Shown here: positions 2,596-31,893 of the stretch, piece after piece
Numbering within the stretch: position 1 is the first letter of the stretch
How the letters are laid out: every line of letters begins with the position of its first letter
Assembly (NCBI GenBank): GCA_003990765.1
Contig: RBNJ01000310.1
Span: 1 to 33,446, forward strand
Length of the DNA: 33,446 bases
Reading direction: 5' to 3'
DNA from: Jimgerdemannia flammicorona
Taxonomy: Eukaryota
The notes under the pieces: model-generated
Told to the model about the DNA's origin: nothing
The model's input: the letters and a program-made list of their open reading frames with translations, nothing else
Databases searched by the model: none
Made by a program: the position numbers and the translations under genes

Positions 2596-3122
2596 AAGGG
2601 AAATCACTTTCTTGCAGGAGGCAGAATGTTACTCCCATCCAATAGAAATGGTCTTGCTCTCTTTTGTTCATTAATTTCTTGATAGAGATCGTTATTACAA
2701 TGATCTGTCCTGTCTCAAAAGGACGAAAATTTTCCCGTAAGGGATATTTTGTTTGGCATGAGTGGGTGTGGATTGGGACGGACCAAACCAACATTGAGCA
2801 GAGTAAATGTGTCACAATTGGGAAATGGCTTACAATCAATAACGAAAATGTACTCCAGGAACCTGACACGCAGTTACTAAAATCAACACCTCAAAAACAG
2901 CGACATCTGTGTCCTTCACTATAGAAGTTAGCTTTGAATTAGTTTTAGCAGGGGGTATGGACCGCTTCACAACGATTAATCACGCAACTATTGAATATTT
3001 TAGCAAAAATCACACTTTTTGTATTATTAATATCTTGATATACATATGGGTGAAGTTATTTATTTATTTATTTATTTATTTTTCAAATTTGTAAAAAAAG
3101 TGCATCAGTGTAGTATATCATC

Positions 3123-3156
<34 letters not shown>

Positions 3157-3965
3157 TAGACTAGATTTTTATTGAAAGAGAACCTAGACTATATAGGCAA
3201 AAACCCCTCCAAACATTACACTTCTATTAACCTAGGTTTGTTATTGTCCAGTAGCTCTACTATGCTAGATATAGCAGGGCTTAATAGTCTATATCTCATT
3301 CTGTATATCATGTTCTCTCTACTATCAGGGGGAAAATAACTATATACCAATGACTAAAAGTATATAATCAAAACTCTAATATATATATAAGATAATGTCA
3401 GAGTTAGATAGCAAAGCTCTTACCACTCCAAATAGAGTAATAGATAAAGAAAAAACTCTCTAAAAGATATAGAATAGTGGGTAAGACCTAGTTCTCTCTA
3501 ATGAGATGAGTGAAAAACTTATATATAAAGTAGAAGGAGATCTCTAATACTCTACTACTCAAGCCTACAGACCTCAATTATATTTCTAAATATCTAACCT
3601 GAGTAGTCTTGAGTCTCTTAATAACTCCAAATGAGCAAAGTCTAATCTTATATATAATTAAGAGTTATGAGAGTAATATTTACTATCTAATTACTCTATA
3701 TCAATCAGAAGGCCCTACTGATATAGTGTCTATAATAATTCTGATAACTATCACTAATCTGGTATCTGATTGATCTACTGTAATTACTCTTCTGTCTATC
3801 TATAATAATCATCTTCTCTCTCAACTCAATACTATCCAAAAAGCAGTTATTATATCAGAACCATACTCACTAAAAAGCTCACCAAAGCTCAGAGGGCTCT
3901 ATTATAGATACTGACAACCTGCAGATAATTTATACTGATACTTGATATCTAAGATTAGCTGACTA

Positions 3966-3992
<27 letters not shown>
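3123..3992 (-). mobile_element. Degenerate poly(A)-tailed (non-LTR-like) retroelement 3' fragment, copy 1
   Basis: ~3163-3965 aligns by eye with ~7693-8508 (e.g. gagaacctagactatatagg/gagaacctagactatataga, aaagctcagagggctctatta/aaagctcagaggactctatta, ttagctgact). Bordered by T-tracts at 3123-3140 and 3966-3992. No diagnostic RT motif is readable. Confidence 0.5.
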
Positions 3993-3998
<6 letters not shown>

Positions 3999-4092
3999 TC
4001 ACTTGAACTTCTATATTTATTACTAGTCTATATTAAATAATATATAAAGTTCAACTCCTACTCAATCTCTCTAGAGGGTCCACCCCCAATCT

Positions 4093-4183
4093 TAGTACTT
4101 CAAATAGATTCAATTTATCCAGATGAGATTTGATTCAGATTTATCATATGATAAATTTAAATCAACTTAGATTGGTCTTATAA
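4093..4183 (+). mobile_element. Orphan terminus of the same hAT family as the 9581-16809 element
   Basis: tagtacttcaaatagat...tccagatgagatttgattcagatttatcatatgata...aatcaacttagattggtct matches 9581-9670 closely, then the similarity stops. Confidence 0.75.
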
Positions 4184-4229
4184 TGTAAGAGGATTGCTTT
4201 TTAGGATAACTGTTATATAGTTCTGGAAG

Positions 4230-5070
4230 GGTTTTCTGGAAGTTCTCTTCTTCCACTACATTACAATGGATATCATTGAGCCACTACCAGTAATACTATC
4301 AGAAAACTGCTATATTATAGTTATTGTAGACCTCTTTACCAAATGAATAGAAGTAGGAGTATTACAAAAAGCCAATGCCCTCTCTATAGCCAACTTCCTA
4401 TACTGAGAAATCATCTGCTACTACAAGACACCAAGGCAAATCACCACAGACCACAGCACAGAATTTGTCAATAGATTTCATAAGATAATATATCAGAAAT
4501 ACAAGATTCAGCACATCAAGACCACTATATATCACTCTCAAGAAAATGGACAGACAGAGAGAACCAATAAGATTCTTAAGAACATTCTGGCAAAGATCTC
4601 AGAGACATATGAGAATTGGGATAACTACCTTCCAACTGCTCTCTCTGTCCTATAAGATATACAGTTACAGAGCACACTTTACCCTAAGAGAACTGCTCTT
4701 TGGAGAAGAAGATTCTGATGGAATCTCAGTCACAAATCTAGACCTAACTTGGAGATGGGTTGATGCAGAAATCCAGAGGCTATACCAAATCAGGAAGGAG
4801 GCTAAAGATTATATCATCAAGTTACAAGTACTGATAAGAAAGAATGCAGAAAAGAATCACAAGACTCTAGAACTCATCCAAATTGGAAAAAAGGTCCTAC
4901 TGTATCAAAATATGATAGAAACCTCATAGTTGTAAAAACTGGAGCCCAAATGGGAAGGATCCTTTTACATGCAAGATATCAAGAGAATTATCTTCTAGCT
5001 TAGAAAAATCTCAGGAACCATACTGCCTACTATGGTACATAGGAACAGACTCAAGAAGTACTATGAACCT
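4230..5070 (+). pseudogene. Ty3/gypsy retrotransposon integrase relic (DDE core plus GPY/F-like C-terminus)
   Basis: From 4266: MDIIEPLP..YIIVIVDLFTK*IEV..IANFLY*EII..PRQITTDHSTEFVN..HIKTTIYHSQENGQTERTNKILKNILAK..NWDNYLPTAL, and later LEPKWEGSF and VHRNRLKKYY. Contains in-frame stops and a frameshift. Confidence 0.9.
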
Positions 5071-5429
5071 ATATAAGAGAAGCAAAATGTGATAACTGCC
5101 TATGAGGTTCTAGTCCATGAATCATAACAGTATGTCTTATGACCAGCAGGCTATCTGTCTGGACTATTCTCTAAGAGATATGGCACCAGCAACTACTTAT
5201 CTATAAGACTTTCAAAGTCAGAAGAGTTCAAACCATCAACTAATTGATCAAGATCAGAATCAGGCCCTTGCTCTATATGAAGGGAGCAATCCTTCACCAT
5301 CATGCTAAAATATATAGAGAAGACACTAGTCTATAAATACCACTTTCAACCTCTTGTCAGAGGTTATGGAATCAGCAAATTTTTCAGGACTAGATCAATG
5401 AATAAGGATATTCAAGAAGATTCTTATTT

Positions 5430-5686
5430 AGGAGGAAGATGTAACAGTGACCTCAGAATGATGACATCAGTACAAGAGATAGCCTTTCCTTGTAAGCCAC
5501 TAGATCAGAACACAAGAAGATCATATGATATAACTCAGACTATAAGATGAGTAATAATAACCAACTATGAGTCATTGTGACCACAGTTCAGGCATCTTGA
5601 AGAATATAAAAGAAGGATCAAGAAACTACAGTAGCAGCAACTCAATAAGACCCACCAATTCCAAAATAACTCAAAGACTTACCACA
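5430..5686 (+). mobile_element. Polypurine tract (5430-5439) and putative gypsy LTR (5440-~5686)
   Basis: aggaggaaga is immediately followed by TGTAAC downstream of the integrase. A candidate right end ...TTACCACA lies at 5686. No second LTR is present to confirm the boundary. Confidence 0.55.
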
Positions 5687-7126
5687 AATGAAATACCTGC
5701 TGCTTGCCAAATCTCAAGATCAAGAAACCACTAAGGTACCTCAGTTGAAGAAAGAATGTTCTAAGATATCAGAAGAGTCATGAGGACCTATACAAGAAGG
5801 ACTTCTAGCCTCAACCTGGGTACTGCAGATCCTTATTACTTTATTCTCTACTGCTATGAGATGAAAACAAGAATCACTATTGCTACCAAATACCTCCAAA
5901 TGTGACAGAAGTATAAAATAGGAAACCTTCTCTGTTAGGAGTTCCCACAGGCCAGCCCCCAAGAGTTATAAAATACTACTCTCATAGATATATGAGAAGT
6001 AAGGACAGCTAAGAAGATTCATCAGATCTTCAGGCATATACTATGGTCAATCCCCAACTTGGAGTATATTAGAGTCTCAGATTTCAGAGATCTGTCAGCC
6101 CACTATATCAATGTACTAGAAGCCAAGATGGCTACAAAAGCCCAGTCCACTATTACTCTCAATAGTGATAAAATAGAAGACTTCTGGTATCCTATCCTCC
6201 AGGACAACTCAGATCAATTCCTGCAAGAATTGATCTCAGTATTCTAAGGCCCAAGTATCTAGGTTAGATCTCCCCAAGACTCTACATTTGTTCTCTATTT
6301 TGTGGAAGAGAACCTTATAGACTGGAGAGCCCCAGACCTCCTTATTCCCACCATTGCTAAAAATGATGATATCATCAGTGATGATATCATCCTGCATAAT
6401 ATATGCAAAGCATGTAAAACATGTGACCTATACAATGAGATCAAAACATTCATAGACCTCATCTCCTTTGAGGACAGCAATGATGAGGATAAAGCTCTTA
6501 TTGTCCTGAACATTCTGCTCTAAGTTCCTTAGTTATACTGAATTATGCTAGTATTCTTTTTCTGTATAACAGCTGTTCCTCTACTGGCATTCTGACCTTG
6601 TAACTCAGAATTATTCCAGCACTATTTTCCTGTATCACTAAAATTATACCAGCATCCTGAACCTGTGTAACCATCTGTGCTGATCCTGGAACTTGGCAGT
6701 TTTCTATATTCCAGTATTTTATTAGTTATTGAAATTTATATTTAGCTTTATATCTTAGTAATTATTAAATTATATTTTAAATAAATACTCTTCTTATTTC
6801 CTTTGAAATAAAGTCAGTTAAGTTTACTTATACATACTTCCTTGCAAGCAATCTAAAGAGATAACAAGATAAGAAGTTTGAGAACTATAAGACCTTGAGA
6901 AGGCACTCTAATAAGAACATACTTATAACAAACTTAAGTTAGTCTAAGAGATATATCTTGAAGAGAATCTGATATATTTGAAGGACTCAGCAACCGCTAT
7001 ATGACAGTATATATATTATCTACTTATATATATAATAATTAGAGAGTCTGAAATTATAGCTCAGACCAATCAGTCAAATCTTCAGAAATTAATTATAAAG
7101 AAACTAAGAAAGTAAAGTAGTATATC

Positions 7127-7251
7127 TAGTACTTCTAACAAATTGAATCAAAGGGTCTAATTTAACTCAAAATTTAATTTAAACTCAATTCAAATTGAAA
7201 AATCTCCATTTTGATTTAATTCAAATTAAGTCAATTTATTTGAGAACACTA
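7127..7251. mobile_element. Short, internally deleted and heavily decayed hAT-type MITE
   Basis: Ends tagtacttctaa / ttgagaacacta are decayed TAGTGCTCCCAA TIRs. The interior matches 15731-16154 (gaatcaaagggtc, aattgaaaaatctcca). Flanks agtatatc / gatatatc are compatible with an 8-bp TSD after G>A changes. Confidence 0.7.
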
Positions 7252-7639
7252 GATATATCTATATATTATATTCAAAAGATGATAGAACTATAATTATTAT
7301 CAAAATAAGAGTAGATTTTATAGCCAAGTAATTTTTAGTTTATTTCATATAAGGAGCCTTATATTTTATCACTTTAACAGCATAACTACTATTACTACTA
7401 TATTTGACTATTGTATAGTATTCACTATTTTTATATATTTGTAAATATTTGAAACATAGTGCCAATCTCTTATGAATATATATTTCCTTATAGTTCTCTA
7501 ACCTAGATAAAACTTGATAAGTCTTCTTGTTTGTACATAGCATCTACCAGAAAAATCCCACATATCTCATATTACTCAATTACTACTAGGATATCTCCAG
7601 CAATCTATTTGGCAAAAGGTTATACTGTATAAAGAGAAG

Positions 7640-7642
<3 letters not shown>

Positions 7643-7677
<35 letters not shown>

Positions 7678-9200
7678 GACCCAAAGTTCTGCAGATTTTA
7701 TTAGAAGAGAACCTAGACTATATAGACTGAAACCCTCCCCCACTACCCCCTGAGCACTATACTCTCATTAATCTAGACTAATTATTATCCAGTAGCTTAA
7801 TTATATTAGATATAATAGGATATTATTGTCTGTACCTCATTCTGTATACTATGCTCTCTCTACTACCAGGGAGAAACAACCATATACCCACAACCAAAGA
7901 CATATGCCTGAAACCCCAATATATATATATGTAAGGCTATATCTAAGCTAAATAGAAATCTCTACTACTTCAAAGAGAATTAGATAAAAAAAAACTCCAT
8001 CAAAGTATAGAGTAGTGGGTAGGGCCTAGTTCTCTCAGATTAGATGAGTAAAGAACTTATACATAAGGCAGGAGGAGACCCCTTACTTAAGTCTGCAGGT
8101 CTTGATTATATTACTATATCAGCTCTTAGTTTCAGTTAAGTATAGCCAAAATATCTGAAATAAGTAGCCTCAGGTCCTCTGACTCTCTCTAATAACTAGG
8201 ACCCAATCATCAAAAGAAGCTGAGAGTGATACCTACTACCTAACTACCAGAAGACTCTACTAATATAATACTTACTCTAGTCCTGATAACTATCTCTAGT
8301 TTGATATCCTACTAGACTACTATATATAATTATTCTTCTTCCTATCTGTAACAGTCATCTTCTCTCTCATCCTGACTCTATCTGAAAAGCAGTTACTATA
8401 CCAGAATTATGTTCACCAAGAAGCTTACTAAAGCTCAGAGGACTCTATTATTATAGTAGAGATCTATAAGTAGCCTATACTGACACTTGATACCCAAGGT
8501 TAGCTGACTCTATATATAGCTTATTATACTCCAGATAATATCTTATTGATGATAGCAAAAGGAAAAAAGTACTATATCAAAATAGATATACCTCAGATAT
8601 AGCTAAAGATATTAGAAACTATAAAAAAGTAGAGAAGATACTGATCTAATACTGATAAAGAGGCAATTCATCACTATTACCTCTCTCTCACTACTCTATA
8701 ATAGATACAGTAAACCAACCCAAGATAGAGGAAGTATTAGTTATAGAAAGTAGACTTGGAAGATTGCCTACCAAACCTTGTAACTGATAAGATAGTAGAA
8801 AAAGAACTATTTTTCAAATGACCTTCAGTCATATAACAGTAGATCTACTATCTGGGCTTTGAGCATATCTTTGTTCTTATTTAGTTCAACTCTCAGGTAA
8901 TGTCCTACTCCTCTCTTCTAATAGTATTCTGAGTACTCTAGTAGTAGACTAGCTATATTCTATATTAAAAGTATCAGAATACTACTGTAACCACACTCTT
9001 CTGATATTTTGATACTTTTCTAAGTATACTAGTAGTAGACTAGTCACATTTTACACCCAAGTAGTCCAGAACATACTTAAAGTTAAAGAGAGATGATTGG
9101 CAGAGACTTATAAGACAAGAAGAGCAAAGTATCATACTAGACTTTTAGAGAAAGTATGAGCCTTAGACCAGAAATACAGAGATATTTTTATATATATAAA
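7643..9200 (-). mobile_element. Degenerate poly(A)-tailed retroelement fragment, copy 2 (longer; right boundary uncertain)
   Basis: A ~31-nt T tract at 7643-7673 is followed by ~800 bp homologous to 3163-3965, with coding-like decayed sequence continuing beyond. Confidence 0.5.
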
Positions 9201-12194
9201 GAGATAATCTTCCAGAAACTAATATGACTCAGAAGATAATAAATTTTCTGTTTGTTCTTATTTAAATCTCAGTTGTAATTTTCAATTATATTGAAAAAAA
9301 TATTTAAAGTTATTAATAAATATGTAAATATCTATAGTATAAGACCAAATACTAATAGCTAAAGCAATGATGGTTTTTCAAGCTATTAATTTAGACTTTA
9401 GAAATAAATAAATAATTCTCTAAAATTGTCTACAGACCTCCATCAGCTGAATGATTTGGACAAGTAGTAGCATACTTACTAGTTCTTAGAACAGTTGGCT
9501 CTAGTCTTCAATTATTTATAAGATTAATTTAAAAATAATTACTCTAATCTATATTACTGATATTTCAGTATATATCTGGCTAGTGCTCCAAACAGATAGA
9601 ATTGATCCAGATGAGATTTGATTCAGATTTATCATATGATAGATTCGAATCAACTCAGATTGGTCTCATGATCTGATTCAGATTGATCCAGATTGATCTA
9701 TCTGGATTGATCCATCTGGATTGATCCATCTGAATTGATCATACAAAATCTTTGATGATATTATTCTTTCTTTTGTTTATTTTTCACTCTACTGCACTTT
9801 GGTAACATCACTCTTTCTTTTGTTTATTTTTCACTCTGATGTACTTTAGTGACATTACTCTTTCTTTTGTTCTCTCTCTTCTTTTGTTCTTTCTTTGTTC
9901 TTTTTCTTTATTCTTTTTCTTTCCTACTACATTATGAGCAAACAAAATAGCAGCTCTTTATTATATATTAGTCCAGTCTACTCATTTTTTTTACCCTATA
10001 ATGATTATCAAAAGAGAGAGTATTTGAGGTAAAAATATACTCTCTACTGATAATGTTAGATTATTTCTCATATGAGCAGCATACAAGCTGCTCATCAAGA
10101 GCTAAAGAGGTAACAGCAGTAGTAATGGTAGTAGTGATAGCAGTGGTGATAGCAGGGATGAGAGAGAATTCTGGCAATAACTCACAGTAGCCCTTTAAAC
10201 CTCAGAATTCACAGACCTCATAGCTATATACATGGTAGCCTTTTTGGAGTAACTAATAGTAGATATAGGTTACTTATTCTACCATCTCTTGTTTACTTAT
10301 GTTTACTTTTTTAATTTCCCCCAGTATGACCCAATTCACCTCATGCTTTTCTTAGAGTCTACAGCTCTATAGCAAGATTTGCTAACTTTATTCACAATAT
10401 CTGGTCAAGATGAAGAAAGGCTGATGGATATTATAGGTATATCTTTAGTGGCTGAGCTGTTGAGTCAATATATCATATAACAGAGATCTCAAAAGGAATA
10501 GAAGCAAGTCTTCATGAGTAATCTTATATAACTCATGCAACTCATTGGTATACAACTTGCTCACTCATGCTCTTTTTCTGAAATACTAATCTTCATGTTT
10601 ATTTAACTTCATTTTTATATAGTCTCTTCTAAAAACACCTATATGATATCTGTATGCAATTCATCTATATACAACCCATCTATATGCAACCCATCTGTAT
10701 ACTTATCTCAGCCCCTCAGATCAGGACTCAGTTCTATTAGAAAGAAGAGTTCAAAGTTACCTGAGTTCAATCATATCTGGTGTCTGATCAAATAGAGAAA
10801 TTTGAGGACAAGATATTCAGTATGAGCAGTATTAGTATCATCATTAAGGCTTGGGGGTCTATATTTGAATTAGAGCTAATTATTCTAAACCAAGAAGTCA
10901 ATTGGCCAGCAAGAGTAATCAATGATAAAGAGAACTATATCATTATTAATAATTGTAGAGAGGTGATTATAATGGTAATAAGGAACCTCTACAGTAATGA
11001 GCTTTGCTACTACATAAATGAGATTTGTGAGGATTGCATCAAATACTGGATAACAGAAAAGAGGGGGCAAAAAAAGCAAGAAGGGGGGTTTTGGACAGGA
11101 ATTGAGTATACTGCAATACTGGTGAAGAGTGGGTTTCAGAGTTCTGAAATCCTCCATACTCATCTTTCTCTTTTTTTTTTTCCTCCTCTCTAAATAATCA
11201 CTCTCTTTACCAATATACTCTTTTTGATACAAATCTAGAGATGTATAAGAATCTGTACCCCTACCAGAACTTTAGAAGTACTGTTAAAGAGCAAACTACA
11301 TATGAGTACAATATGGCTTATATAGTAATAGCAGCTATGATCTAGAGTTCTTTGAGCAGATTGGTAGAATATATAGCAGGTCAGCTTGGTAGTGATCTCA
11401 GTACAGCTGTATATATTCTTGGTACAATTTAGTGTGCCATATAAGGTGAGAAGCTCTACTTCATTTGTGCTGTAATCTGGGAGATTTCTGCAGTCTGGGG
11501 GGTTTCTGTCTCTTATATACAAAAAGGACTAACTGGATGCCATCTGTTTTGACAGGTTTTCAAGCTGGGGCTCCTGGGGGCTAGACTGAGGGCAGATATC
11601 CACTAGTATAGTCTGACAGTATGAGGTTCTGAGCCAAGAGTTCACTCAATCATAACTCATATCATATTAGGATACATCAGATACAACATTTCTCTACCCA
11701 TATATATAGACAACAATATCATCTTGATAATGTTTTATATCCTGAAAAAGAAGAGCCCAATCTGAAAAGATAGCAGCAGAGTCTGATATGACCTCACCTA
11801 TAGTTTTGAGGTCCTGTTTGTAGTCAACATAGCCATTCTATTCCAACTATATGACCACCATGGTACTGTTATCTTCAAGAAGAGCTTAGACATAATAATC
11901 ATTATACTCACAATAGATGATAGGCTTATCAAGGCCTGAGACTGGTAGGTAGAGCAGTTTTTGTGAGAGTTAGGCAATATTTATAAGGATTTGGCAGTCA
12001 TTTTGTATAGGTTGGGCAGTTTTTTATAAGGATTGGGTCAGTAGCCAAGCATCTCTTCTATAGTGCTAGTTTAGCTATTATGCTGAGCCCTGCCAGCCCC
12101 TTGGCCCTGCTTTATAGTACTACTAGTATGGCACTATAGCATAGGGCCAGAGTACTCATAGGATTTGAACTGGTGATAGAACCTGAATCTATAG

Positions 12195-12306
12195 TAGACT
12201 TCAACTACCAGAAGTATTCTTCAACTACTGAAAGTATTCTCTAACTGCTAGAAGTACTCTCTGATCACCAGAAGTACCCTCTGACCACTAGAAGTACCCT
12301 CTGACC
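12195..12306 (+). repeat. ~20-21 bp tandem minisatellite (consensus ~cagaagtaccctctgaccac), about 5 copies
   Basis: Successive units gaagtattcttcaactact, aaagtattctctaactgct, gaagtactctctgatcacc, gaagtaccctctgaccact, gaagtaccctctgacc. Confidence 0.8.
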
Positions 12307-12325
12307 CAAACTCAGACTCCTTGGC

Positions 12326-13275
12326 AGCTTGGGATTGCCCCTTTGCTGCTGGCAGAGAGTTACAAATTTTGCATGCTCCTTCTACTAACCCTACTGACCC
12401 CCAGCCTAGGCATAGGCTGCTTAAGAGAGCCTAGTGCTCCCAATGAATCAAATTGAATTAAATTGGACCCAAATTCAATTCAATTTGAAAACTTCAAATC
12501 AAATTGAGGCCCAATTCTATTTGAATCAATTCAAATTGAGGTCCAATTCAATTTGAGGTCCAATTTGAACTCTATTTTTAGAAATTAAATAACTCGACGA
12601 ATACACATCCAAATTTAATGATCTTTAGTTTGTTTGTTAGATTTCTATTATATAGGGGAATCTAACAAGCTAAAGATCATTGAATTTGGATATGTATTCG
12701 TCAAGTTATTATATTTCTAAAAATAGGTTTTGAATCGGACCCTTAATTCAATTCAAATTCAATTCGATTTGAATAATTCAATTCATTTGGGAGTACTAGG
12801 GGAGCCCCATGCTGCTGGTGGAGGGCTGCAAATTTTGCATGCTCCCTCCACCTATCCTGTCTCCTGTATCTACTCTGCTCCCTCCACCACCCCTCCTGTC
12901 CTAGACACTTACAGCTTGGAGCTGCCAATAAAGGGTTGTAAATTTTGTACACTCCTTCCACCAATCCTATATCTATCAACCCCACCCACCAACCCAGATA
13001 CTGATGGCTTGGGGCTGTCTCTTACTGCTGGTAGAGGGCTGCAAATTTTGCATACTCTCTCCACCTATCTTACCCCCTTTACCAATACCCCTATTCTAGA
13101 TACTTATGGCTTGGGGCTGCCCCTTGCTACCAGTAGAGGGCCGTAAATTTTATGCACTCCCTCTGCTGACTCCACACCCACTGACCCTATCTACCAACCC
13201 AGGCACTGACAACTTGGGACTACTCCTTATTGCTAGCAAAAGGCTGCAAATTTTTTACACACCCTCTACCACTAC
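12326..13275 (+). repeat. Tandem array of six ~90-110 bp units, each with a conserved hairpin-forming core; unit 2 is split by a MITE
   Basis: The core gcttggggctgccc..tgctgctggyagagggctgcaaattttgcatrctccctccacc recurs near 12330, 12415/12800, 12913, 13005, 13107 and 13212. Confidence 0.85.
12432..12798. mobile_element. Fold-back hAT-type MITE (367 bp)
   Basis: TIRs tagtgctcccaa / ttgggagtacta. Long inner inverted arms (cgaatacacatccaaatttaatgatctttag ... ctaaagatcattgaatttggatatgtattcg). TSD agagagcc / ggggagcc, with both mismatches A/G transitions. Confidence 0.9.
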
Positions 13276-13431
13276 TAACTCTGCTGACCACTGCCCCACT
13301 TGGCCACAAACTTCAGGCTGAGTCCTCAGTTTTTTTTCCTTTTTTTATTTTTTGAAAAAGCATTAAATAACCCACAAGGCCAATTAACTTATCAGTGAAC
13401 CCCAGGACCTACTGAATTTTAGTAGCTCAAG

Positions 13432-16400
13432 CTCTACTAAGATTTCAGACATATACATGCCTGAATTATCTCAGCAATCAGCATATACCTCTTAGGGATA
13501 ATGAGATCTATCCTATCTGAGAACACCCACTTGATAGGAGCACTGATAGTAGAAATTGCCAGATAGTCCCAAGCTATACCATATAGACTAGAGAAGTCTA
13601 TTTAATATAGCTGTGGCCATATACCCCAGTAATCAGAATAGTAATTAGATTAGTAGATTAAATTGGCCCAATGCAACCAACCACTTATCTGACAACCTAC
13701 CTTCTACCAGTTGAGCATCTCTGCACCCTCTAATAGGATCATGTGATCACTGGTGAGGTAAATGGTAAGTTTATCTATTAATAGTAGCTCTTCTACTGAT
13801 GACTCTCTCTTCTTCTTTCTGCTGAAGTAAATGTGGGACAGGAGGGATCTCTCAGCATATTCATCTAGACTTCAGTCAAAACCTTACTGCAGTATATATT
13901 TCTCTAGTATATTTCAATTACAATCTATTTAGTTCTCTTAATGAAGTACTGCTCCCAGCCCTGATCTTTGTAGTATTATAGCTTTAAGTATAGGTCCAGC
14001 ACTGTTCAGAGAAAGAGAGTGAGTTTTTGTAGAGATTTCTCTGTTTTGGAAAAGAGCAACAGCCACATGCCAATATATCTATACTAATTGAGTATATGGC
14101 AGTATCTATTTTGAAGTAGTATTTTCTAAGCTTACTTAGAGCAACCTCCATAGTATCTCTCTAATCCAGGCTTAACCATAAATCACCACAACCCTCTAGT
14201 CTGTTCTTGAGCTTGTCCTCTAGTTAGTTAATTAGAAGGTTATATACTAGTATTGCAGAGCTTATTGTCAGGGCCATTTGTTTAACTATATACTTTATAT
14301 ATATAATTATCAAAACACTAACAGTTATGTATAGTGAGGTATTATATTATATAGAGACAGATAAAATAAGTGTAGGGTCAGAGCAATTACTACTTACTTC
14401 TAAAACTCTGACAATATTCCTAAGTATATTCTACTCACTTTCACCTAGAGCCTTGCTCCACATTTCTTTATCAGCAACAACTATTGAATCTATTGGCTTT
14501 TTTTGTTTTGTTTTTTTTTAAAATCAGCTAACTGAAGAAAAAGAATATATACTATAACAAACTTCAATGTACACTAGATCATTGCAAATGTTGAGTTCTA
14601 ATATATATAGATGTCCAATATAAGCTCTTTCAGGGCTAAACTGATTGCTTTACACTATGCAATGAATTTGTCTTATCATATTATTGTAGTGATAATCAGA
14701 CTAATATAACTAGTTTGTATAGCTTGAAAGCTATACTCAGAGCCCCTCCTCTCTCAGATATTTTATCTATATGTATAAGATAGTTCTGAATAGTGAGGTT
14801 CAGTATATGGGCCTGGTATTATATATGACAGCTTTCTATACTGAAGGTCATATTTTTCTATTTGAGACTGGTCACTAAAACTTGGAAAAATATTGAATTA
14901 TTTGTAGTATTATCTGTTATAATGGCCAAAATCTGTACTTGAAATATTTGGTCAGCAAATTTATATGAAAATAAATAACCAATAAAATCTGTTTTGTTTC
15001 AGAACCTCTCTCAAAATACTGACCTGATAGCAAGCCCCCCTTTTTTATCTTGATTATAATCCCAAGCTCCCAGATATAACCAATAAAAGTATCTGCAATA
15101 TTGTCTCCAGAATGAGGGCCAGCAAGTTTGACAAAGTCAAGGGTGAGAGATTTAAACTATCAATTGAGATCAATCTAATAACTAGTAATATTCAGAAATG
15201 AAATTATATTGAGAAATATCTATGTGTTGATTGTAAATAAAATTTTTCCTGCTGAATTCTACTTATTAAATATGAGATTAAATGTGAGATTAAATTGGTG
15301 AACTCTTTATAAATATATATATAATTTAGCTTACAAAGGTTACAGTACTATCTTTATTTATTTATTTTACCTGAAGTGTCTGGCAAAGATTGTCATACTC
15401 CTTTCTATAGGTCTCCAGGATATTTTTGTGAATAGTATTAATACTTGACAAATAAAAATCATACTTTAGAAGGCCAAAGATACTATGCAATTAATCACTC
15501 TCAATAGTTATAAATAGCTGATCTATATATACAATCAAGTGAATAAGTTGATTTTGAAATTCTGCTGAAGAGTATGGCTAAATATTTTTGATTAAATAGA
15601 GTTATTGATACAGAAATTGTCAGGCAATCAGATAAACATATCCACTATAGCTTAGATGTCAATTTTATTTGTCTCTATATTCTTTTTGATTTTATTCTTT
15701 TATGTATTAATATATGTTTGAAGTCATACCTAGTGCTCTCAATGAATCAAATCAAATCGAATTTGGCCCAAACTCAATTTGATTCGATTGAATCAAGGGT
15801 CCAATTTGATTCAATTCGAATCGAATCAAAGGTCCAATTCGATTCAAAGTTCAATTCGAACCTTAATTTTCAAAATGTAATAACTCGACGAAAACTCATC
15901 CAAATTTAATGTATTTTAGCTTGTTAGATTCACCGTATTAATGTGATTCTAACAAGCTAAAGTACGTTAGATTTGGATGAGTTTATGCTGAGTTATTACA
16001 TTTTGAAAATTAGTGTTCGAATCAGACCCTCAATTTGATTCAACTTTTGATTTGATTTGAATTGATTTGAATTGAAAAATCCCCAATTTGATTTGACTCA
16101 TTTAACCCTCAATTCGATTCGATTTGAATTGATTTGACTTGTTTGGGAGCACTAGTCATACTACCAAGCATTTTGAACTTCTGGCTAGTATAGTTTATAG
16201 AGGTACGTAGATGAAATAGTATCATATGTATGTCAAACAAAAAGTATCAGTTATATCATAGGTGCATTTTTTTTTTTTTTTAAATTTTTTACCTGCAATA
16301 GTTATAAACAACATCATCTTCCATCTTAGCACAATATTATCAGATTTAAGAGTAAGAATTGTATGGAAGGTATGGAACTATCAGGGATATTTGACTTAAA
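13432..16400 (-). pseudogene. hAT (Ac/Restless-like) transposase pseudogene with introns
   Basis: Minus-strand relics: BED-finger-like S*I**YCAKMEDDVVYNYC (~16290-16350); first-catalytic-Asp region KILFTINT*IFLNIISFLNITSY*IDLN**FKSLTLDFVKLAGPHSGDNIADTF (~15085-15247); KLRKYYFKIDTAIYSI / LDLYLKL*YYKDQGWE (~13950-14135); dimerisation domain IAWDYLAISTISAPIKWVFS..IIPKR..L.AEIIQACICLKS** (~13432-13580). Confidence 0.9.
15731..16154. mobile_element. Fold-back hAT-type MITE (424 bp) inserted in the transposase BED region
   Basis: TIRs tagtgctctcaa / ttgggagcacta. TSD gtcatacc / gtcatact. Inner arms taattttcaaaatgtaataactc..aaactcatccaaat..ttagcttgttaga / tctaacaagctaa..atttggatgagttt..gagttattacattttgaaaatta. 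Same family as 12432-12798. Confidence 0.92.
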
Positions 16401-16817
16401 GTATCATCAGTACTGTGAACTATTGAAGACTAATCTGTTAATATGTGTATTTGTGTATTTGCATATATATATATATTTATATATATATGTATTATATATG
16501 TAGATATATCTAGTATATGAGTCATATAGAGGATTTGGATTAGAAGATTTGATTGAAGGATTCAGATGAGGATTCAGATTAAAGGATTTGAATTGGAGAA
16601 TTTGGATTGAGTAATTCAGATTGAGTGATTTGAATTGAGTGATTCAGATTGGGGTGGTTCAGATGGATGATTTAGATAGAGTAATTCAGATGAGATAATT
16701 TGGATTAATCTGAGTTGATTCAGATGGCTTCAGATTTGAGATTTAGATCAAACTATTATATAATAAATCAAATCTGGATTTGATTTAAATTGACTCATTC
16801 AGAGCACTATAGCTGGC

Positions 16818-18179
16818 TCCTTGCCTAGGCAATGATGAAATAGAAACTACTTGATTTGATTTCTGGTCTTTTAAGCTCTGATGTTATATAATACTTATAG
16901 TAATGAACTAGAGAGTAGATTATTGAAATTTCACCAAGACTGATATAAGGACAGAATAGTATATCTATTTTAATTACCATACTTTCAAGTAATATAAGTA
17001 TTTTATAAAGTCAATAAGACTAAGTTCTCTCTAATCTATCAGTAGTATCAATATATTCTAGTCTATCTAACTATACTGTTCTGCCCAAATCTATGATCTA
17101 ATCATCTTCAGAAGTCTCTTTACCACTTATACTAAGAAGTCTAGATAATATCTAGAATAAAGGATAGTTCATTTATCTTTATTATACATAGATCTTAATA
17201 TAGCTGGAGTAGGTTGGCTTAGTATAGATTGGCTTGAAGTAGGTTAATATATTAGAATAGCTTGAGATATTGAAGTAGTTGAATATTAAAAGATTGTTGA
17301 AAGCTCTCTAAGAGGTAAACTTAAAACAATAAATAGATATAGAGATAGATTATTATAGAGTATATGGGGGAATTTACACTAGTATATACTAGTGAGAAGA
17401 CAATCAAGAGATTATAAGATCCCAGAGGCTAAATAAGATAGTTAAAGAGCTAAAGTTCTGAGATTGGTGAGTTTATTAATATTATTTTATAAAGTAGTAT
17501 ACTTAGTAAGACTATATATTTTATAGTAGTTCAAAATACTGTAAACATCAAGATAGCTTAAAGATAGATTAATATTAGCAAATTCTTATATTATTTATCT
17601 AAGATATTATTATTCAAAATATTATTCTCCAAATATAGATATATTATTATAGATATATATATGTATATATACTATAGTATAACTATACTAATATATTATA
17701 ATTTCAGCTCTACTTTTCTCTTTTAAGAATAAAGAAATATTCTTATTAAAAACCTTTAGACTCAACTTAGAATATATATATAGTATCTCTATTTAATATA
17801 TATAAAACTCAAAAATAATACTTAGACTATATATATCTCTATAATGAGTAAAAGAAATTTAGTACTTTCTTATAGAACTTAGAACTTAGGGCTAATAGTT
17901 ATCTCTGATTATTTATAATATATTAATTCTATTAATATATAGATTTTATTATAATAATAATTATCTAAAATATAATAATTAGTCAAAATACCACTACTAT
18001 TGTTTAGAATATAGTAATTATCTAGATTATAGTAGTTATTTATAATATAGTAGTAGTTATTTGAGATATAATTATCTGATATATAAATATCCTCTGAAAT
18101 ATCAGTATCTTTTATTAATAAAAGCTTATAGTATTTTATATTAAAAAAAAGTAAAGAATAGAATATTTTTTAAAGATAG

Positions 18180-18222
<43 letters not shown>

Positions 18223-18780
18223 ATATATCTATATATTATTTAAGAGCTACTCTAGAGAGCTATATAAGCTCAAACTCAAGCTTAAGCTTATATACTATCT
18301 AAGTAAAAGCAAAAGCCATATAAGCTTATATAATTTATATAATTATTATTTTTAATATAATTATAAATAAATAATTAAACTTAAATTAAAATCCTTTTTT
18401 AAAATTTATATATAAGTTTTTAATTTTTTTTAGTAATAATATTTTCTATAGTATATATTTAAATTTTATATAATTGAGTTTATATATATTTATTTATATT
18501 ATTTTCTTTATATCAATTTTCTTTATTATTATTATTATTATTAAAATCTTTTTTTTTTTTAAAAAAATAAAATAAAAATAAGTTAGTAAATAAATATATC
18601 TATAATATAGTTTAATGTTTTATTTAATTTTATTTATTTATAATTTTTCTATAATGATATTATCATATAATTTAAAGTATAATTATATAAATATTAAAAT
18701 AAATATAAAATCACTAAGAAAAGTAAAAATATGGAATTTATAAAGAATGTTATAAATTCTGATACTATATATTATATAAT
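16818..18780. other. Extremely AT-rich, terminally decayed repeat DNA including a ~41-nt A tract (18180-18220)
   Basis: Progressive loss of C and G and abundant TATA/TAG. No motif is assignable by eye. Confidence 0.6.
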
Positions 18781-19166
18781 ATGGTTTTAAGATAAATACC
18801 CCCTTAATGTTGAAATCAGAATAAGACTTATTGATAAGATGTCTGATAATATGGCGCTCAACTTTTACCTGGTCTTTTGGTTTATGAAAAGAAAAGTATG
18901 TTGGTCCAGCAGTCAGGCTCACTTTATAGACTAAAGATCCGTAAATGATAAATTTGACGCAGGTCATCAGAAAACAGAGAACTTCTGGTGATATGCTACC
19001 TTGTTCGGTTGTCTGGTGAGTAAGCAAGCTTGGTTGGTGCTAGTATCTACATGCAACAGTTATCAACAACGCCGCCATCAATACTTAAAGTGATCACTCA
19101 AAAACTTCAATATCAAACTCACAAATTCGCAATTTATTCACAATTCTTCACACGACAGCCAATTCG

Positions 19167-24915: not shown

Positions 24916-26817
<1,902 letters not shown>

Positions 26818-27222: not shown

Positions 27223-29325
27223 TCACCAGCCTCGGAACCCCATCGGGCTCATCCCCATCCCCATTTGTGGTGGTATCGACATCGGCATTGCCATCGGTGG
27301 TGGACCGGGCGGACCAGGCGGTGGTCCCATAGGTGATCCTTGAGGGGCGGATGATTTACCCTTGTTCTTGCCTTGGCCACCAGGCGCGTTCTTGGCGTTC
27401 TTAGATGGTGGGGGTGATTTTGGACGAAGTTCTTCGATCTCTTGAAGGGGGGAAGAGGAAATGGAAAGAGAAGGCCCGACATGGTTGATTTGCAATGGTA
27501 ACGAGGTTCTACTCTGGATAGCTTGCCCCGACTACCAGCATTCAAGTATAGAGAAGTCGAAATGGGACTTACTTGGCGTGGACCCCAAGAGATAACCATT
27601 TTGATCACCCGAGAAGTATGAATTATACGTCTTTGCACTGAAGTTCGAGCTCGACAGCGCATTACCAATGGTCAACCAACCACGACGGATATTATGATCC
27701 TGGGTCAACAAACCAGAGATCACCAGTCAGATATGATGAGGCCCAGTCTGACGCAGTTCAAGACCATGCATACCTCTCCAAACAGTTCCAAACGCCGACG
27801 CCCAAGGCAGAAATGTTCGATAATATGGTACAGCTCTTCGGGTTTACGCTGGCCTTGAGTTATACCGCAGTCAAGTATGATGTGTCAGAAATGATGTTCA
27901 CTGATAAGAGCCAACCCTCCAAAATAAACATAAAACATCGTACTCACTCCCAAGGGATGGTTCCTCCGATATGATCACATCTGTGTCAACGTTACAATGG
28001 ATGAAATGCCCGTCTGTGCTCCGGCGCACGGTTCCCTTGATACCCATCAGGCAATGCTCCTTCGTGTGTTGGAGAACCGAGCGGGTCTCAATGAAGTGAC
28101 TGCCCTGGAAGTGATGGATAACACGGAAGCCACGAAATTGAAAAGGGGGTAACTTAGTGGTCAGTGGACTGAGGAATATAGCATACGCCCGTCCGATATG
28201 TCCAAGGAACGACATGCTCGCCAAACCTACCTCCCATGCCCTATTCGTCTTGATCCACACAATGTCCTCACATCTTCTGTACCCCCACTTGGTCAACAGC
28301 TGTCTGCCATGGTCTAGGCCCTCCGAATCGCCGCACCAGATCCAAATGAAGGACGGGTTGGCTGCGACATCCTCAATCTTGAGATTGGCAATTTCTTCAT
28401 ATGACCAATAATCGCGTGATTTGCCAGCAGTGAGTGGAGATCGGCGGCAGTACCTGAGGACGGGTTGTCGCCATCAATTTCCCATAGCCTGCTCAGAACT
28501 TCACATTGCAAATCAACGACGAGAGAAAACACAACTCACTCCTCTAGCGGCGGGTCGATAAGAATAACGTCAAATTTGCACTGCAACGACTTGAGATCAA
28601 AGTTACGCAGGTCAGCCTGCAGGTAAGCAGGGGGTGTGCTGCGCGCATCGACGAGGTCGTTTTTCAGCTTCGTGAGCTCCTTGAGCTTAGGGTATCTGGT
28701 GGAATGATTTTTGAGTATCAGTAATGTCGGGCGGAACATGCTGAAAGAACAGCAGTTGCACACGAAGAACGTACTCATCGAAGCGCTCCTTAAGGTTCGA
28801 GTCACGAATGTAATTATGCGGTCGTTGCCCCGAGTCGACAAAGTTCTGAGAATAGTCGTTTCGTATCGAAGTTTTGGATTGCTCATCCTGCGAACACGGA
28901 TTCAAAATTTAGTTGGTAAGCGTGTTGAGGTCCAGAGTGGTGTCTCATAGACTCCTTTGTTCAATTGAGACCCATCCATCGTAGTCACCCACCTCTCCAT
29001 CCACCGTCGCGCCTGACGAGTCCTTCTCTTTGTCCTTATCCGCAACTTTTTTCTCCTGAATTCTGGTCTCTTCCAAGCGACCACTACGCAATGACTGAAT
29101 CTGAACATCCGTAAAGGCTACTGGAGGAGACCTGCCCGTCGTTCGTCTTCTCTTGACGCGCGCGCCGTCGTCGCCGTCTGACTGACCATCGGTGCGTCGG
29201 AGGTTCACGCCAGCGGCCGTTGGCAAGGCCTGAAGTTTTGAACTGCGACGCTTTTGTCGGTCGGTAATGAGGGCGGAGATCTGGCGGTGTTTCAAGTAAT
29301 CCGCTTCGTCTGTGGGGGGGGCCAT
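27223..29325 (-). CDS. METTL14: METTL14/KAR4-type MT-A70 family subunit of the m6A methyltransferase, multi-exon
   Basis: [158 protein letters not shown] are characteristic METTL14 blocks. Confidence 0.93.
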
Positions 29326-29557: not shown

Positions 29558-31893
29558 CTAGATGTCCAAGAGCAACCTCCTAGGGTCTTCGATGATGTTC
29601 TTAATCTTCACCAGGAAGGTGACGGCCTCACGACCATCGATGAGTCGGTGGTCATACGTGAGGGCGACGTACATCATGGGACGGATCTCGACCTGGTTTA
29701 CGGTTCACGAAAAGAGAGCTCGTAAATTAAGTTTCCTCTAATCGAAGTACCTTCGGAGAAAAAAAAAAAAAAAAAACGACGTACCTTGCCATTGACGGCA
29801 ATCGGCCTCTCCTTAATGGCGTGCATGCCTAAGATGGCGGTTTGGGGTAGGTTGATGATGGGGGTACCGTACAGAGAGCCATAGACACCGCCGTTCGAAA
29901 TGGTGAAGGTACCGCCGGTCATGTCCTCGATGGTGATTTTGTTATCGCGGGCCTGGAGAAATAATTGACGAAATTGAAAACCAAGGCCAATTAATATCAT
30001 GCCTCTTGAGCATTACCCCGCTCAACAACCGCGACAAGCAACACAATGTACAAAATACGATCGATACCTTGGCGCCCAACTCGGCGATCTGTTTCTCCAC
30101 CTCAATAAATGACATCTTTTCCGCATTCCTCAACACCGGGGTGACGAGACCTTTGGGCGTGGCGACAGCGACGCTCAAGTCAATGAAGTCGTGATAGACA
30201 ATCTCCTCGCCGTCGATGGAGGCATTGACGGAAGGTAGCTCGTGCAGGGCGGCGACGGAGGCCTTGACGAAGGCGGACATGAAACCGAGCTTGATGCCGT
30301 GGGTCTTGAGGACAGTGTCCTTGTAGGTGTTGCGGAGGTCGATGAGACTAGACATGTCAATTTCATTAAAGGTTGTGAGCGAGGCGGCGGTGTTCTGGGA
30401 CGCCTTGAGGCGGTTCGCGATGGTCGAACGCATACGGTTCATCTTCACACGGCGCTCTTCTCGGCTGCCATACGCGGACGGGGTACTCCTGGCCGAGGCT
30501 TCCGGACCGGGAGCGGGTTTCGAAGCCGGGGCAGATGTGGCGGGAGCAGGCGCAGCGGGGGCTTTCGGTGCTAACGTAAGATGTCACGGCAATACCCACA
30601 GACAGAACTTTAATTCTCGAGGCATGCTTATGCAAATGAATTCAATATATTTACATGGCAGATATACCAGGTACTGCGGGAGCAGGCGTGACGCCCTCTT
30701 TCTTGGAAGCTTCCTTCAGAGCCTCCTTCGGCGCTTCCTTTGGCGTTTCCTCTGGCGTTTCCTCTGGCGTTTCCTTCGGCGCTTCCTCCGGAGTCTCTTT
30801 CGGCGCTTCCTTGGGTGTCTCCTTAGGCGTCTCTGTGGCACCTGCAAGAATCATATCCCCCAAAAATCATAATATCTTAACAAAATGGAAGGTAAGCAAT
30901 TCCACACTCCGAGAATGCACTAAAACTACGAACCCCCCGACGGCGCATCGCCGAGCTCCAGTTTGAAGAGATCAGCACCAACAGCGACGGTGTCCTCCTC
31001 GTTGGCAAACACCTCGACAATAGTGCCAGAAGCAGGGGAATTCACCGAGATGTCAACCTGGATGGGCACAGACACGAAAAATCGTAGAGCTCATCATCAG
31101 CGGCGGTAATAATCTACAACCGAATCCAAACTCCCTTTAATTATGAACCAGAATTGCCATAAAATTAGCTGCAGAGATAGGTCACCTTGTCGGTTTCAAT
31201 TGTGGCGACTTCCTCGTCTTGTTTGACGAATTGGCCGACCTCTGTGTCATTTCAGTATTCAGAAAAGCGGGCATGAGAACTGAATCGATCATTGCCGCAA
31301 ACCGTTGAATAATCGTGATCAAATGAAAGCGAGCAAACCTACTCTTAAGCCACTGTTTTAGAGTGCCCTCAGAAATCGAATCAGCCATATGTGGCACCTG
31401 GACGACCTTGTCGGCTTCATATGTGTACATTGCATTGGGAACGTATAAATTCGGGGCCTAAGCCACCATAATACCAGACAAGATCACCCACCGTCTCTCC
31501 TCACCCTGGTCCCAAAATGAGCTCCAAGTGAAACTGACCATAGAACCGAACTTGCTGACGCGGGATCACACATAATTTCCTTAATAAAGTAGTTTCGGCG
31601 TTGAAAAGGAGAGACTTAAGAACACCTAATTCACTTTTGTGCTGAACAGCAAGCCGCTGACACCCTCCTTCCCATAAGCATGCCCATTAACATATAACTG
31701 ACAAACAGTATAACACATACCTAAGACGCTCGGAGCCGATCAGCAAGGGAGCTGCGGCGGGCACCTGAACGTGGATAGCACGCGTCTGAGCGACATGCCA
31801 GAGGCTAATGGTGGAGGATCTGGCGGCACTGGCGCGCAAGGCTCGGGCAGAGGACAGTAATAGCGGGGTGGCCCTTGATGAGGACATGATCAT
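29558..31893 (-). CDS. KGD2: 2-oxoglutarate dehydrogenase E2, dihydrolipoamide succinyltransferase (KGD2/DLST), multi-exon with mitochondrial presequence
   Basis: Arg/Ala/Ser-rich N-terminus; lipoyl domain [130 protein letters not shown]. Confidence 0.97.
30700..30835 (-). repeat. Coding 12-bp tandem repeat (E-[T/A]-P-[K/E]) in the KGD2 hinge exon (30841-30668)
   Basis: [46 protein letters not shown], bounded by ttgcag| and |gtatat. Confidence 0.85.

Follow-up and report, generated by a model that had tools for sequence, protein, structure and literature searches.

The DNA analyzed here is a single contig of the fungus Jimgerdemannia flammicorona (RBNJ01000310.1; the whole stretch of 33,446 bp is referred to as the window), and this one locus was studied together with protein libraries and published papers. 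Taxonomically, the host belongs to the Endogonales within the Mucoromycotina (Mucoromycota), in line with a preliminary description of the sequence that had placed it in a probably non-Dikarya fungus. Between two genes of normal CpG content lies an AT-rich, CpG-free island of degraded mobile elements (2984-18854), which contains a pair of direct repeats resembling long terminal repeats (LTRs), remnants of a Ty3/gypsy-type integrase and of a hAT transposase, a tandem array, short palindromic elements and strongly degraded DNA. The preliminary description had read this island as the product of C>T/G>A hypermutation similar to repeat-induced point mutation (RIP), acting on all repeat classes and not limited to CpG. 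The analysis presented below partly supports this interpretation, which was right in its core and too broad with regard to "all repeat classes".

The outermost CpG dinucleotides that bound the island are found at positions 2983 (the last one on the left) and 18855 (the first one on the right), and both borders are sharp, each falling inside approximately 150 bp. Within the island, 22 CpGs were observed while 390 are expected from the base composition (observed/expected ratio, o/e, 0.06). Eighteen of these 22 are located in two short palindromes (12531-12767 and 15743-16136), and without these palindromes only 4 CpGs remain versus 376.4 expected. Thirty one-kb windows starting at positions 3001 to 17501 were evaluated; the CpG o/e was 0.00 in 20 and at most 0.15 in 27 of them, and the three exceptional ones (0.21-0.71) overlap the palindrome at 15.8 kb. 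The flanks as a whole have a CpG o/e of 1.04 and a GC content of 0.499, with CpG o/e values between 0.74 and 1.37 in individual flank windows. The GC content falls from 0.44-0.62 in flank windows to 0.11-0.48 at about 2950-18850, and the average for the island is 0.314 (minimum 0.11) compared with approximately 50% in the flanks. The near absence of CpG over 16 kb, the sharp borders and the CG-rich flanking genes, all of which had been pointed out before, were therefore verified. Flank DNA outside open reading frames (ORFs) of at least 80 amino acids (3,542 bp) has a GC content of 0.44 and o/e values of 0.98 for CpG, 0.87 for CT/AG and 0.81 for TA, so CpG depletion is not a trait of unique non-coding DNA at this locus. 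The depletion is confined to transposon DNA while unique flank DNA is normal, which is the pattern expected from the decay of 5-methylcytosine (5mC). The remaining dinucleotide o/e values also differ between the island and the flanks (CT/AG 1.41 versus 0.89; TA 1.06 versus 0.74; CA/TG 0.96 versus 1.07), and CA/TG is not raised in the island although CpG decay should feed it. The island displays a directional, context-dependent and island-restricted loss of cytosine beyond ordinary background, which is excluded because the adjacent unique non-coding DNA has 44% GC and normal CpG. That the changes stop at the island and are absent from unique non-coding flank DNA is in favor of the earlier interpretation.

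The pair of plus-strand direct repeats allowed us to analyze damage beyond CpG. Both copies (3123-3964 and 7654-8509) measure approximately 840 bp, pair with each other in a blastn comparison and contain 0 CpG. They are 68% identical over 891 alignment columns and 93-94% identical after recoding in a purine/pyrimidine alphabet. The aligned core consists of 554 identical positions, 168 transitions, 39 transversions and 90 gap columns, and the Kimura distance amounts to 0.37 with transversions contributing just 5%. At 14 sites, CA in one copy faces TG in the other; these are former CpGs that changed on opposite strands, and the remaining transitions are located in non-CpG contexts. Where both neighboring bases are conserved, the C had changed at 29 of 44 CpA, 24 of 32 CpC and 22 of 85 CpT sites, which corresponds to an odds ratio of 6.6 for A or C versus T as the 3' base (Fisher p = 2.4e-8). 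A T on the 5' side was protective (17/59 sites changed versus 58/102, p = 6e-4). If every transition is taken as C>T or G>A, the ancestral GC content was at least 0.43, compared with 0.31-0.35 at present. Runs of transitions on one strand or in one copy were absent from this pair in permutation tests (p = 0.66, 0.08 and 0.62); of 167 pairs of adjacent transitions, 41 agreed in both copy and strand, with 43.0 expected (p = 0.66). Many rounds of mutation could hide such strand-coordinated runs.

A Ty3/gypsy-type integrase core remnant adjoins the first repeat copy on the plus strand (4257-4532; Pfam rve, E 7.9e-8, 32.9 bits, just above the cut-off), with the end of a MITE-like element (resembling miniature inverted-repeat transposable elements) intervening, and the two repeats are 4.5 kb apart. 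Reverse transcriptase, RNase H and gag sequences were not found in a scan of the plus-strand frames of 4000-6500, which did not extend to 6500-7653 or to the minus strand. As the integrase follows right after copy 1 and neither reverse transcriptase nor gag was present in the scanned frames, the repeats are called only LTR-like. The reading frame of the integrase (4170-5057) is interrupted by 9 stop codons. A word-seeded protein search returned a single match, P0121 (30% identity), which combines reverse transcriptase, RNase H and integrase domains as a gypsy-type polyprotein, and 25,277 representative proteins match the integrase at E <= 1e-3. The frame was aligned to 149 of the 150 best representative homologs (25-47% identity), and changes were polarized at 64 positions at which at least 60 homologs were aligned and at least 50% of these agree. 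Forty positions were unchanged. Sixteen can be reached through C>T/G>A alone, a single one through T>C/A>G alone, and 7 call for transversions or mixed changes (binomial p = 2.7e-4). The 16 forward changes are found on both strands and affect CpG codons (arginine CGN) as well as non-CpG codons, the latter including glycine GGN to GAN or AAN, tryptophan to TGA, histidine to tyrosine and proline to serine. Three arginine CGN codons are possible CpG-type changes and three further codons admit a CpG-bearing ancestor. With real homologs as the reference, the C>T/G>A direction on both strands asserted in the preliminary description was reproduced (16 forward versus 1 reverse). A limitation of RIP-like damage to the duplicated 840-bp repeats was also considered and ruled out, as directional changes of this kind are present in the intervening integrase too. 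The negative RIP index of the integrase may reflect its starting composition.

For the island as a whole, the odds of C versus T relative to the flanks were calculated for both strands with the palindromes excluded, a comparison that assumes a flank-like starting composition of the elements. These odds are 0.01 for CpG, 0.28 for CpA, 0.50 for CpC and 0.95 for CpT. Among the trinucleotides, all four NCG have values of 0.00-0.01, ACA and CCA are both at 0.19, and TCT, GCT and ACT range from 1.09 to 1.17. The trinucleotide comparison agrees with the copy-based rates, and the order of contexts is CpG (lost to completion) >> CpA > CpT (barely touched), with CpC in between. CpC as a preferred context was dropped, as it was seen in the LTR-like pair and not in the tandem array described below. 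The expectation for plain 5mC decay, an excess of TpG/CpA with all other contexts at background, failed given the strong C loss before A and C. Non-CpG damage is real: it is evident from the LTR-like pair, the purine/pyrimidine recoding, the trinucleotides and the polarized integrase codons, and the earlier statement that the changes are not limited to CpG holds on the contexts of the pair, the trinucleotide odds and the comparison with the 149 homologs. Of 53 island windows, 21 have a composite RIP index above zero and 32 a negative one. Positive values cover both 840-bp repeats (0.45-0.71 for copy 2), 6500-9100, 13700-14300 and 17000-18500. The C:G->T:A transitions agree with the term "RIP-like" used previously. 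For the CpA bias of RIP the result is mixed, as CpA is changed more than CpT but CpG is the top target and the composite index is positive in a minority of the windows.

Two nearly perfect palindromes that resemble miniature inverted-repeat transposable elements (MITEs) keep their CpG. One is located at 12531-12767 (inverted repeat I3, 237 bp; 5 CpG versus 4.5 expected) and the other at 15743-16136 (inverted repeat I1, 394 bp; 13 versus 9.1), the latter being related to 12429-12774; jointly they contain 18 CpGs versus 13.6 expected. Their identity in the purine/pyrimidine alphabet is 87-90%. The arms of the shorter palindrome differ by 15 transitions and 13 transversions, and those of the longer one by 41 transitions (18 of CpG type) and 16 transversions. 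The longer palindrome also has flank-like o/e values for CT/AG (0.76) and TA (0.56). Comparison of the two MITE-like copies revealed 52 transitions (26 of CpG type) and 34 transversions, with CpA changed at 4 of 22 sites. The ratio of non-CpG transitions to transversions is 26:34 between these copies versus 154:39 in the LTR-like pair (Fisher p = 1.9e-7). This control is limited in that copies or arms were perhaps not identical at insertion. The MITE-like short elements show CpG-type decay at most, and together with their normal CpG content and copies that differ mainly at CpG this is where the claim that all repeat classes were hit fails. The family comprises 12429-12774 and 15728-16136 as well as the fragments 4093-4184, 7121-7234 and 9581-9672, which have the motif at their ends in common and contain internal repeats measuring 17-33 bp. 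The fragment at 4093-4184 (plus strand, repeat family D7) carries the end motif and pairs with 9581-9672 at 87% identity (blastn, alignment). The fragment at 7121-7234 contains 0 CpG, so being short does not protect a copy indefinitely. Most simply, the CpG-keeping palindromes are later arrivals or are too short for marking.

The hAT element is represented by a remnant of the C-terminal dimerization region of the transposase on the minus strand (13434-13640; Pfam Dimer_Tnp_hAT, PF05699, E 2.2e-4, with 21.4 bits equal to the cut-off), which ends with TAG TAG. The minus-strand peptide strings LDLYLKL (13979-13999) and CLKS-stop-stop (13434-13451; codons TGT CTG AAA TCT TAG TAG) were found in or near this match as previously described, and AWDYLAIS is encoded on the same strand at 13551-13574. 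For the hAT "consensus" motifs with which these strings had been compared, the searches gave no homolog to confirm them. For the catalytic region, Pfam returned nothing at E <= 0.01 in 13298-15801; the remnant had 0 relatives in the word-seeded protein search and 0 PDB sequence matches at E <= 10.

A tandem array of five units of approximately 103 bp (12799-13319, plus strand; repeat family D1) lies upstream of this remnant in window coordinates, with degenerate units from about 12230. The units are 92-93% identical in the purine/pyrimidine alphabet, and the ten unit pairs, which are non-independent, differ by 246 transitions and 126 transversions. Changed sites amount to 71 of 115 for CpA, 33 of 112 for CpC and 27 of 97 for CpT. 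Alternation of GCATGC, GTACAC and GCATAC across the units suggests former CpG runs. The program TRF missed the array because its units differ by many transitions, and the array was defined by a repeat search and a self-comparison in the purine/pyrimidine alphabet. It is satellite-like, with one strongly C-rich strand (GC skew about -0.25).

The most degraded segment of the island (17000-18850) has a GC content of 0.18 (down to 0.11), 0 CpG and o/e values of 0.52 for CA/TG, 1.69 for CT/AG and 1.21 for TA. Its composite RIP index is 0.45-0.76, and inspection indicated that surviving C and G residues are mainly found in AGCT, CT and AG contexts. A further 3.3 kb of unclassified CpG-free DNA (9100-12400, 1 CpG) yielded no Pfam domain at E <= 0.1 in six frames and no repeat partner within the window; it is either an unrecognizable element or once-unique DNA that was mutated along with its neighbors. 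The island also contains short tandem repeats and long A or T tracts. Homopolymer tracts adjoin the 840-bp repeats (T27 at 3966-3992, T31 at 7643-7673 and a T run followed by an A run at about 3120-3155) and occur in the AT-rich relic (A41 at 18180-18220). Retroelement tails or former C or G runs altered by mutation are possible sources of these tracts.

Pfam domains of the flank ORFs include MOZ_SAS/zf-MYST/Tudor-knot, cytidylyltransferase, MT-A70, 2-oxoacid dehydrogenase and peptidase S9. An exon of ethanolamine-phosphate cytidylyltransferase (25345-26136, plus strand) is 98% identical to an annotated J. flammicorona protein, with further best matches in Endogone, Umbelopsis and other Mucoromycota. 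At a distance of 9 kb from the island, a minus-strand exon (27898-28473; Pfam E 2.9e-28) encodes an MT-A70 family methyltransferase, for which METTL14 is the label given in the preliminary description. According to reviews, the MT-A70 family in early-diverging fungi includes writers of DNA N6-methyladenine too. A direct repeat with a 24-bp offset, detected by purine/pyrimidine self-comparison at 30698-30834 in the region of the 2-oxoacid dehydrogenase (KGD2-like), may be a repetitive linker-coding stretch. The left flank (58-62% GC) contains long overlapping open frames (1356-2384 on the minus strand and 1656-2921 on the plus strand), and the 342-amino-acid minus-strand frame is without a Pfam match. 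At the right border, a minus-strand open frame of 118 amino acids (18686-19039) crosses from the AT-rich relic to the 3' side of the MYST acetyltransferase gene, which is unexpected in such stop-rich DNA.

These data are best read as a nest of dead mobile elements that was subjected to methylation-linked mutation of the cytosine-deamination type, while neighboring genes and unique non-coding DNA were spared; the chances of this reading are judged to be about even. Silenced transposon chromatin would be cytosine-methylated by DNMT1-superfamily enzymes, with CpG being methylated at high efficiency and non-CpG sites (mainly CpA) at a lower level, and the methyl-cytosines would be converted to thymine over many generations, either spontaneously or aided by an enzyme. 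We infer deamination of cytosine or 5mC as the underlying chemistry. No claim is made for a trigger by sequence duplication or for a tie to the sexual cycle. Methylation-linked decay is preferred because CpG leads as a target, as is the case for DNMT1-class enzymes, and because the required types of enzyme are reported in another species of the Mucoromycotina: a DNMT1 and an enzyme resembling DIM-2 are described for Phycomyces, whose methylation is mostly at CG and to some extent at non-CG sites (PMC7862722). In addition, the activity of DIM-2 is said in a review to promote C>T substitutions in methylated repeats (PMC13297926), and the Glomeromycotina, which are related mycorrhizal fungi, are reported to methylate CpG in transposons (PMC8647823, PMC13443276). 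Several points weigh against this reading. It is based on one locus with inferred ancestral states, and the enzyme step is pure inference. It is possible that the 840-bp repeats are not LTRs belonging to the same element, and their identity at insertion is assumed. The CpC effect is inconsistent (24/32 in the LTR-like pair versus 33/112 in the array). Heterochromatin-wide methylation should also erase the CpGs of the palindromes, yet their CpG content is normal, even though 18 of the 41 transitions between the arms of the longer one are of CpG type.

One rival is a true RIP-type defense. Duplicated DNA would be detected through its homology, with the sexual phase or a stage before karyogamy as the probable time, and an enzyme would deaminate its cytosines in bursts with a preference for CpG and CpA, while short elements would remain below a length threshold and escape. 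This explanation is possible, but it is held only tentatively. The bimodal CpG content (4 versus 376 expected in the long elements; 18 versus 13.6 in the palindromes) fits such a threshold, although the CpG-free MITE-family fragment at 7121-7234 indicates that shortness alone gives no immunity. CpA is changed more readily than CpT, and the composite index is positive over both 840-bp repeats and the relic at 17.0-18.5 kb, but the same index is negative in 32 of the 53 island windows. In the LTR-like pair, the Kimura distance of 0.37 combined with only 5% transversions points to bursts rather than to great age, but strand- or copy-coordinated clustering of transitions is missing (p = 0.66, 0.08 and 0.62). 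The integrase and the DNA at 9.1-12.4 kb lack a partner within the window, yet they are CpG-free and mutated. Published reports diverge as well. A RIP-index signal outside the Dikarya is described, with caveats, for Zoophthora (PMC11105155), but RIP signatures are reported as undetected in the Mucoromycotina (PMC8647823, citing Venice et al. 2020), repeat-enriched signatures are reported in ascomycetes only (PMC12543289), and a loss of RID is reported for those Mucoromycota that do not belong to the arbuscular mycorrhizal clade (PMC8298701).

A second rival is that only 5mC at CpG was deaminated and that everything else is due to old neutral decay or to the native AT-rich and CT/AG-rich composition of the element families. 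CpG loss is by far the strongest signal, and the MITE-like copies are indeed CpG-dominated (26 of 52 transitions of CpG type, CpA changed at 4 of 22 sites). The inconsistent CpC effect also favors this view, as does the integrase, where 3-6 of the changes behind the 16:1 ratio are perhaps of CpG type and the lower confidence bound on the direction bias is modest. Neutral decay, however, should not produce 31% GC, or 11-18% at 17-18.8 kb, next to unique non-coding flank DNA with a GC content of 0.44 and a TA o/e of 0.81. The ratio of non-CpG transitions to transversions (154:39 in the LTR-like pair versus 26:34 in the MITE copies), the 6.6-fold odds gap between C before A or C and C before T, the inferred ancestral GC content of the LTR-like repeats (at least 0.43 versus 0.31-0.35 now) and the missing enrichment of CA/TG despite the feed from CpG decay likewise argue against it, and this weakest of the live rivals is considered unlikely. 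An AT-rich block that entered the contig by mis-assembly or as foreign DNA of its own composition would account for the abrupt change at both borders. The block, however, is embedded within one contig with fungal genes on either side, it holds eukaryotic transposon remnants, and its internal repeats differ by directional transitions that composition alone leaves unexplained; an artefact or contaminant is accordingly very improbable.

The damage in the island can be compared with systems known from other fungi. In RIP of Neurospora crassa and other Pezizomycotina, C>T/G>A changes on both strands similarly wreck transposons and spare neighboring genes, leaving AT-rich and TpA-rich relics. The differences between copies in the island are overwhelmingly C:G->T:A, as in RIP (168:39 in the LTR-like pair, 92-94% purine/pyrimidine identity, 16:1 in the integrase), CpA is likewise favored over CpT, and both the direct repeats and the oldest relic have a positive composite index. 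The context order of Neurospora RIP is CpA > CpT > CpG > CpC. In contrast, CpG is the prime target in the island and is fully erased, CpT is nearly spared and clustering in strand runs is not seen. RIP is known from the Dikarya, chiefly the Pezizomycotina, whereas the present host is a mucoromycete of the Endogonales. RID is described either as ascomycete-restricted (PMC13297926) or as lost, together with DNMT5, in Mucoromycota outside the mycorrhizal clade (PMC8298701, citing Bewick 2019). The CpG decay of methylated transposons, as attributed to DNMT1/DNMT5 in Basidiomycota and arbuscular mycorrhizal fungi, resembles the island in that the loss is confined to transposon-rich DNA, and CpG methylation of transposons is reported as documented in Rhizophagus and Gigaspora (PMC8647823, PMC13443276). 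The island differs from such systems by its total depletion (4 CpGs of 376 expected), by heavy non-CpG C>T without CA/TG enrichment, and by a fall in GC content that far exceeds what CpG loss alone gives. Dim2-dependent repeat mutation in Zymoseptoria tritici is alike in outcome, since a DNMT1-superfamily enzyme methylating all contexts is reported to raise C>T in repeats (PMC13297926, PMC8016269), and the mucoromycete Phycomyces is reported to carry a gene of the DIM-2 type (PMC7862722, PMC13297926). The preference of DIM-2 is CpT according to a review (PMC13297926), however, and CpT is the spared context in the island.

CpG-centered RIP-like signatures outside the Ascomycota are also described as TpCpG hypermutation in the Pucciniomycotina (Microbotryum and rusts; PMC3318451); unlike there, the island has lost all four NCG alike (0.00-0.01) and CpA and CpC are changed too. 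Zoophthora radicans (Entomophthorales) is a non-Dikarya fungus with a large transposon load and dinucleotide indices suggestive of RIP (PMC11105155). That report is described as relying on composite-index windows only, with major caveats by its authors (PMC11105155), whereas in the present study copies were aligned and changes polarized at one locus. Among ten Dikarya genomes, species-specific CpA, CpT and CpG signatures are reported to be tied to Dnmt1 subfamilies (PMC4352252). As reported, a kingdom-wide k-mer screen found repeat-enriched signatures in ascomycetes alone (PMC12543289), and RIP signatures are given as undetected in Gigaspora or Mucoromycotina species (PMC8647823, citing Venice et al. 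2020). A literature search, with Chang 2019, Venice 2020 and Bewick 2019 outside its reach, found no RIP-like or CpG-decay signature for Jimgerdemannia or the Endogonales.

Clear directional, context-dependent C>T hypermutation of transposons is thus confirmed in an endogonalean fungus at one 16-kb locus. Methylation- or RIP-like hypermutation of transposons is a kind of process already known in other fungi. A more far-reaching and rather doubtful proposal is that the Endogonales, which branched off from the Dikarya well ahead of any documented RID-based RIP, have an active repeat-directed cytosine mutator with its own hierarchy (CpG >> CpA > CpC, CpT spared) and a length threshold that frees MITE-sized elements. 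If true, RIP-like genome defense would be much older than the Ascomycota or would have been invented more than once, which would contradict the published claims that RIP signatures are absent from the Mucoromycotina and that such signatures are limited to ascomycetes. Islands of this kind also defeat similarity-based repeat annotation: word-seeded searches with the integrase and hAT remnants yielded 1 and 0 relatives, respectively, so the repeat content of these genomes may be underestimated. For the genome of J. flammicorona, a size of 240 Mb is reported (PMC7928374, citing Chang et al. 2019). Should the pattern hold across the genome, its hierarchy, with CpG in the lead, might be the reason for which dinucleotide screens tuned to CpA would miss it. 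It would also bear on the large transposon load carried by this mycorrhizal lineage, and would provide a system for asking whether mutational defense predates the Dikarya or arises from ordinary methylation by the DNMT1 superfamily.

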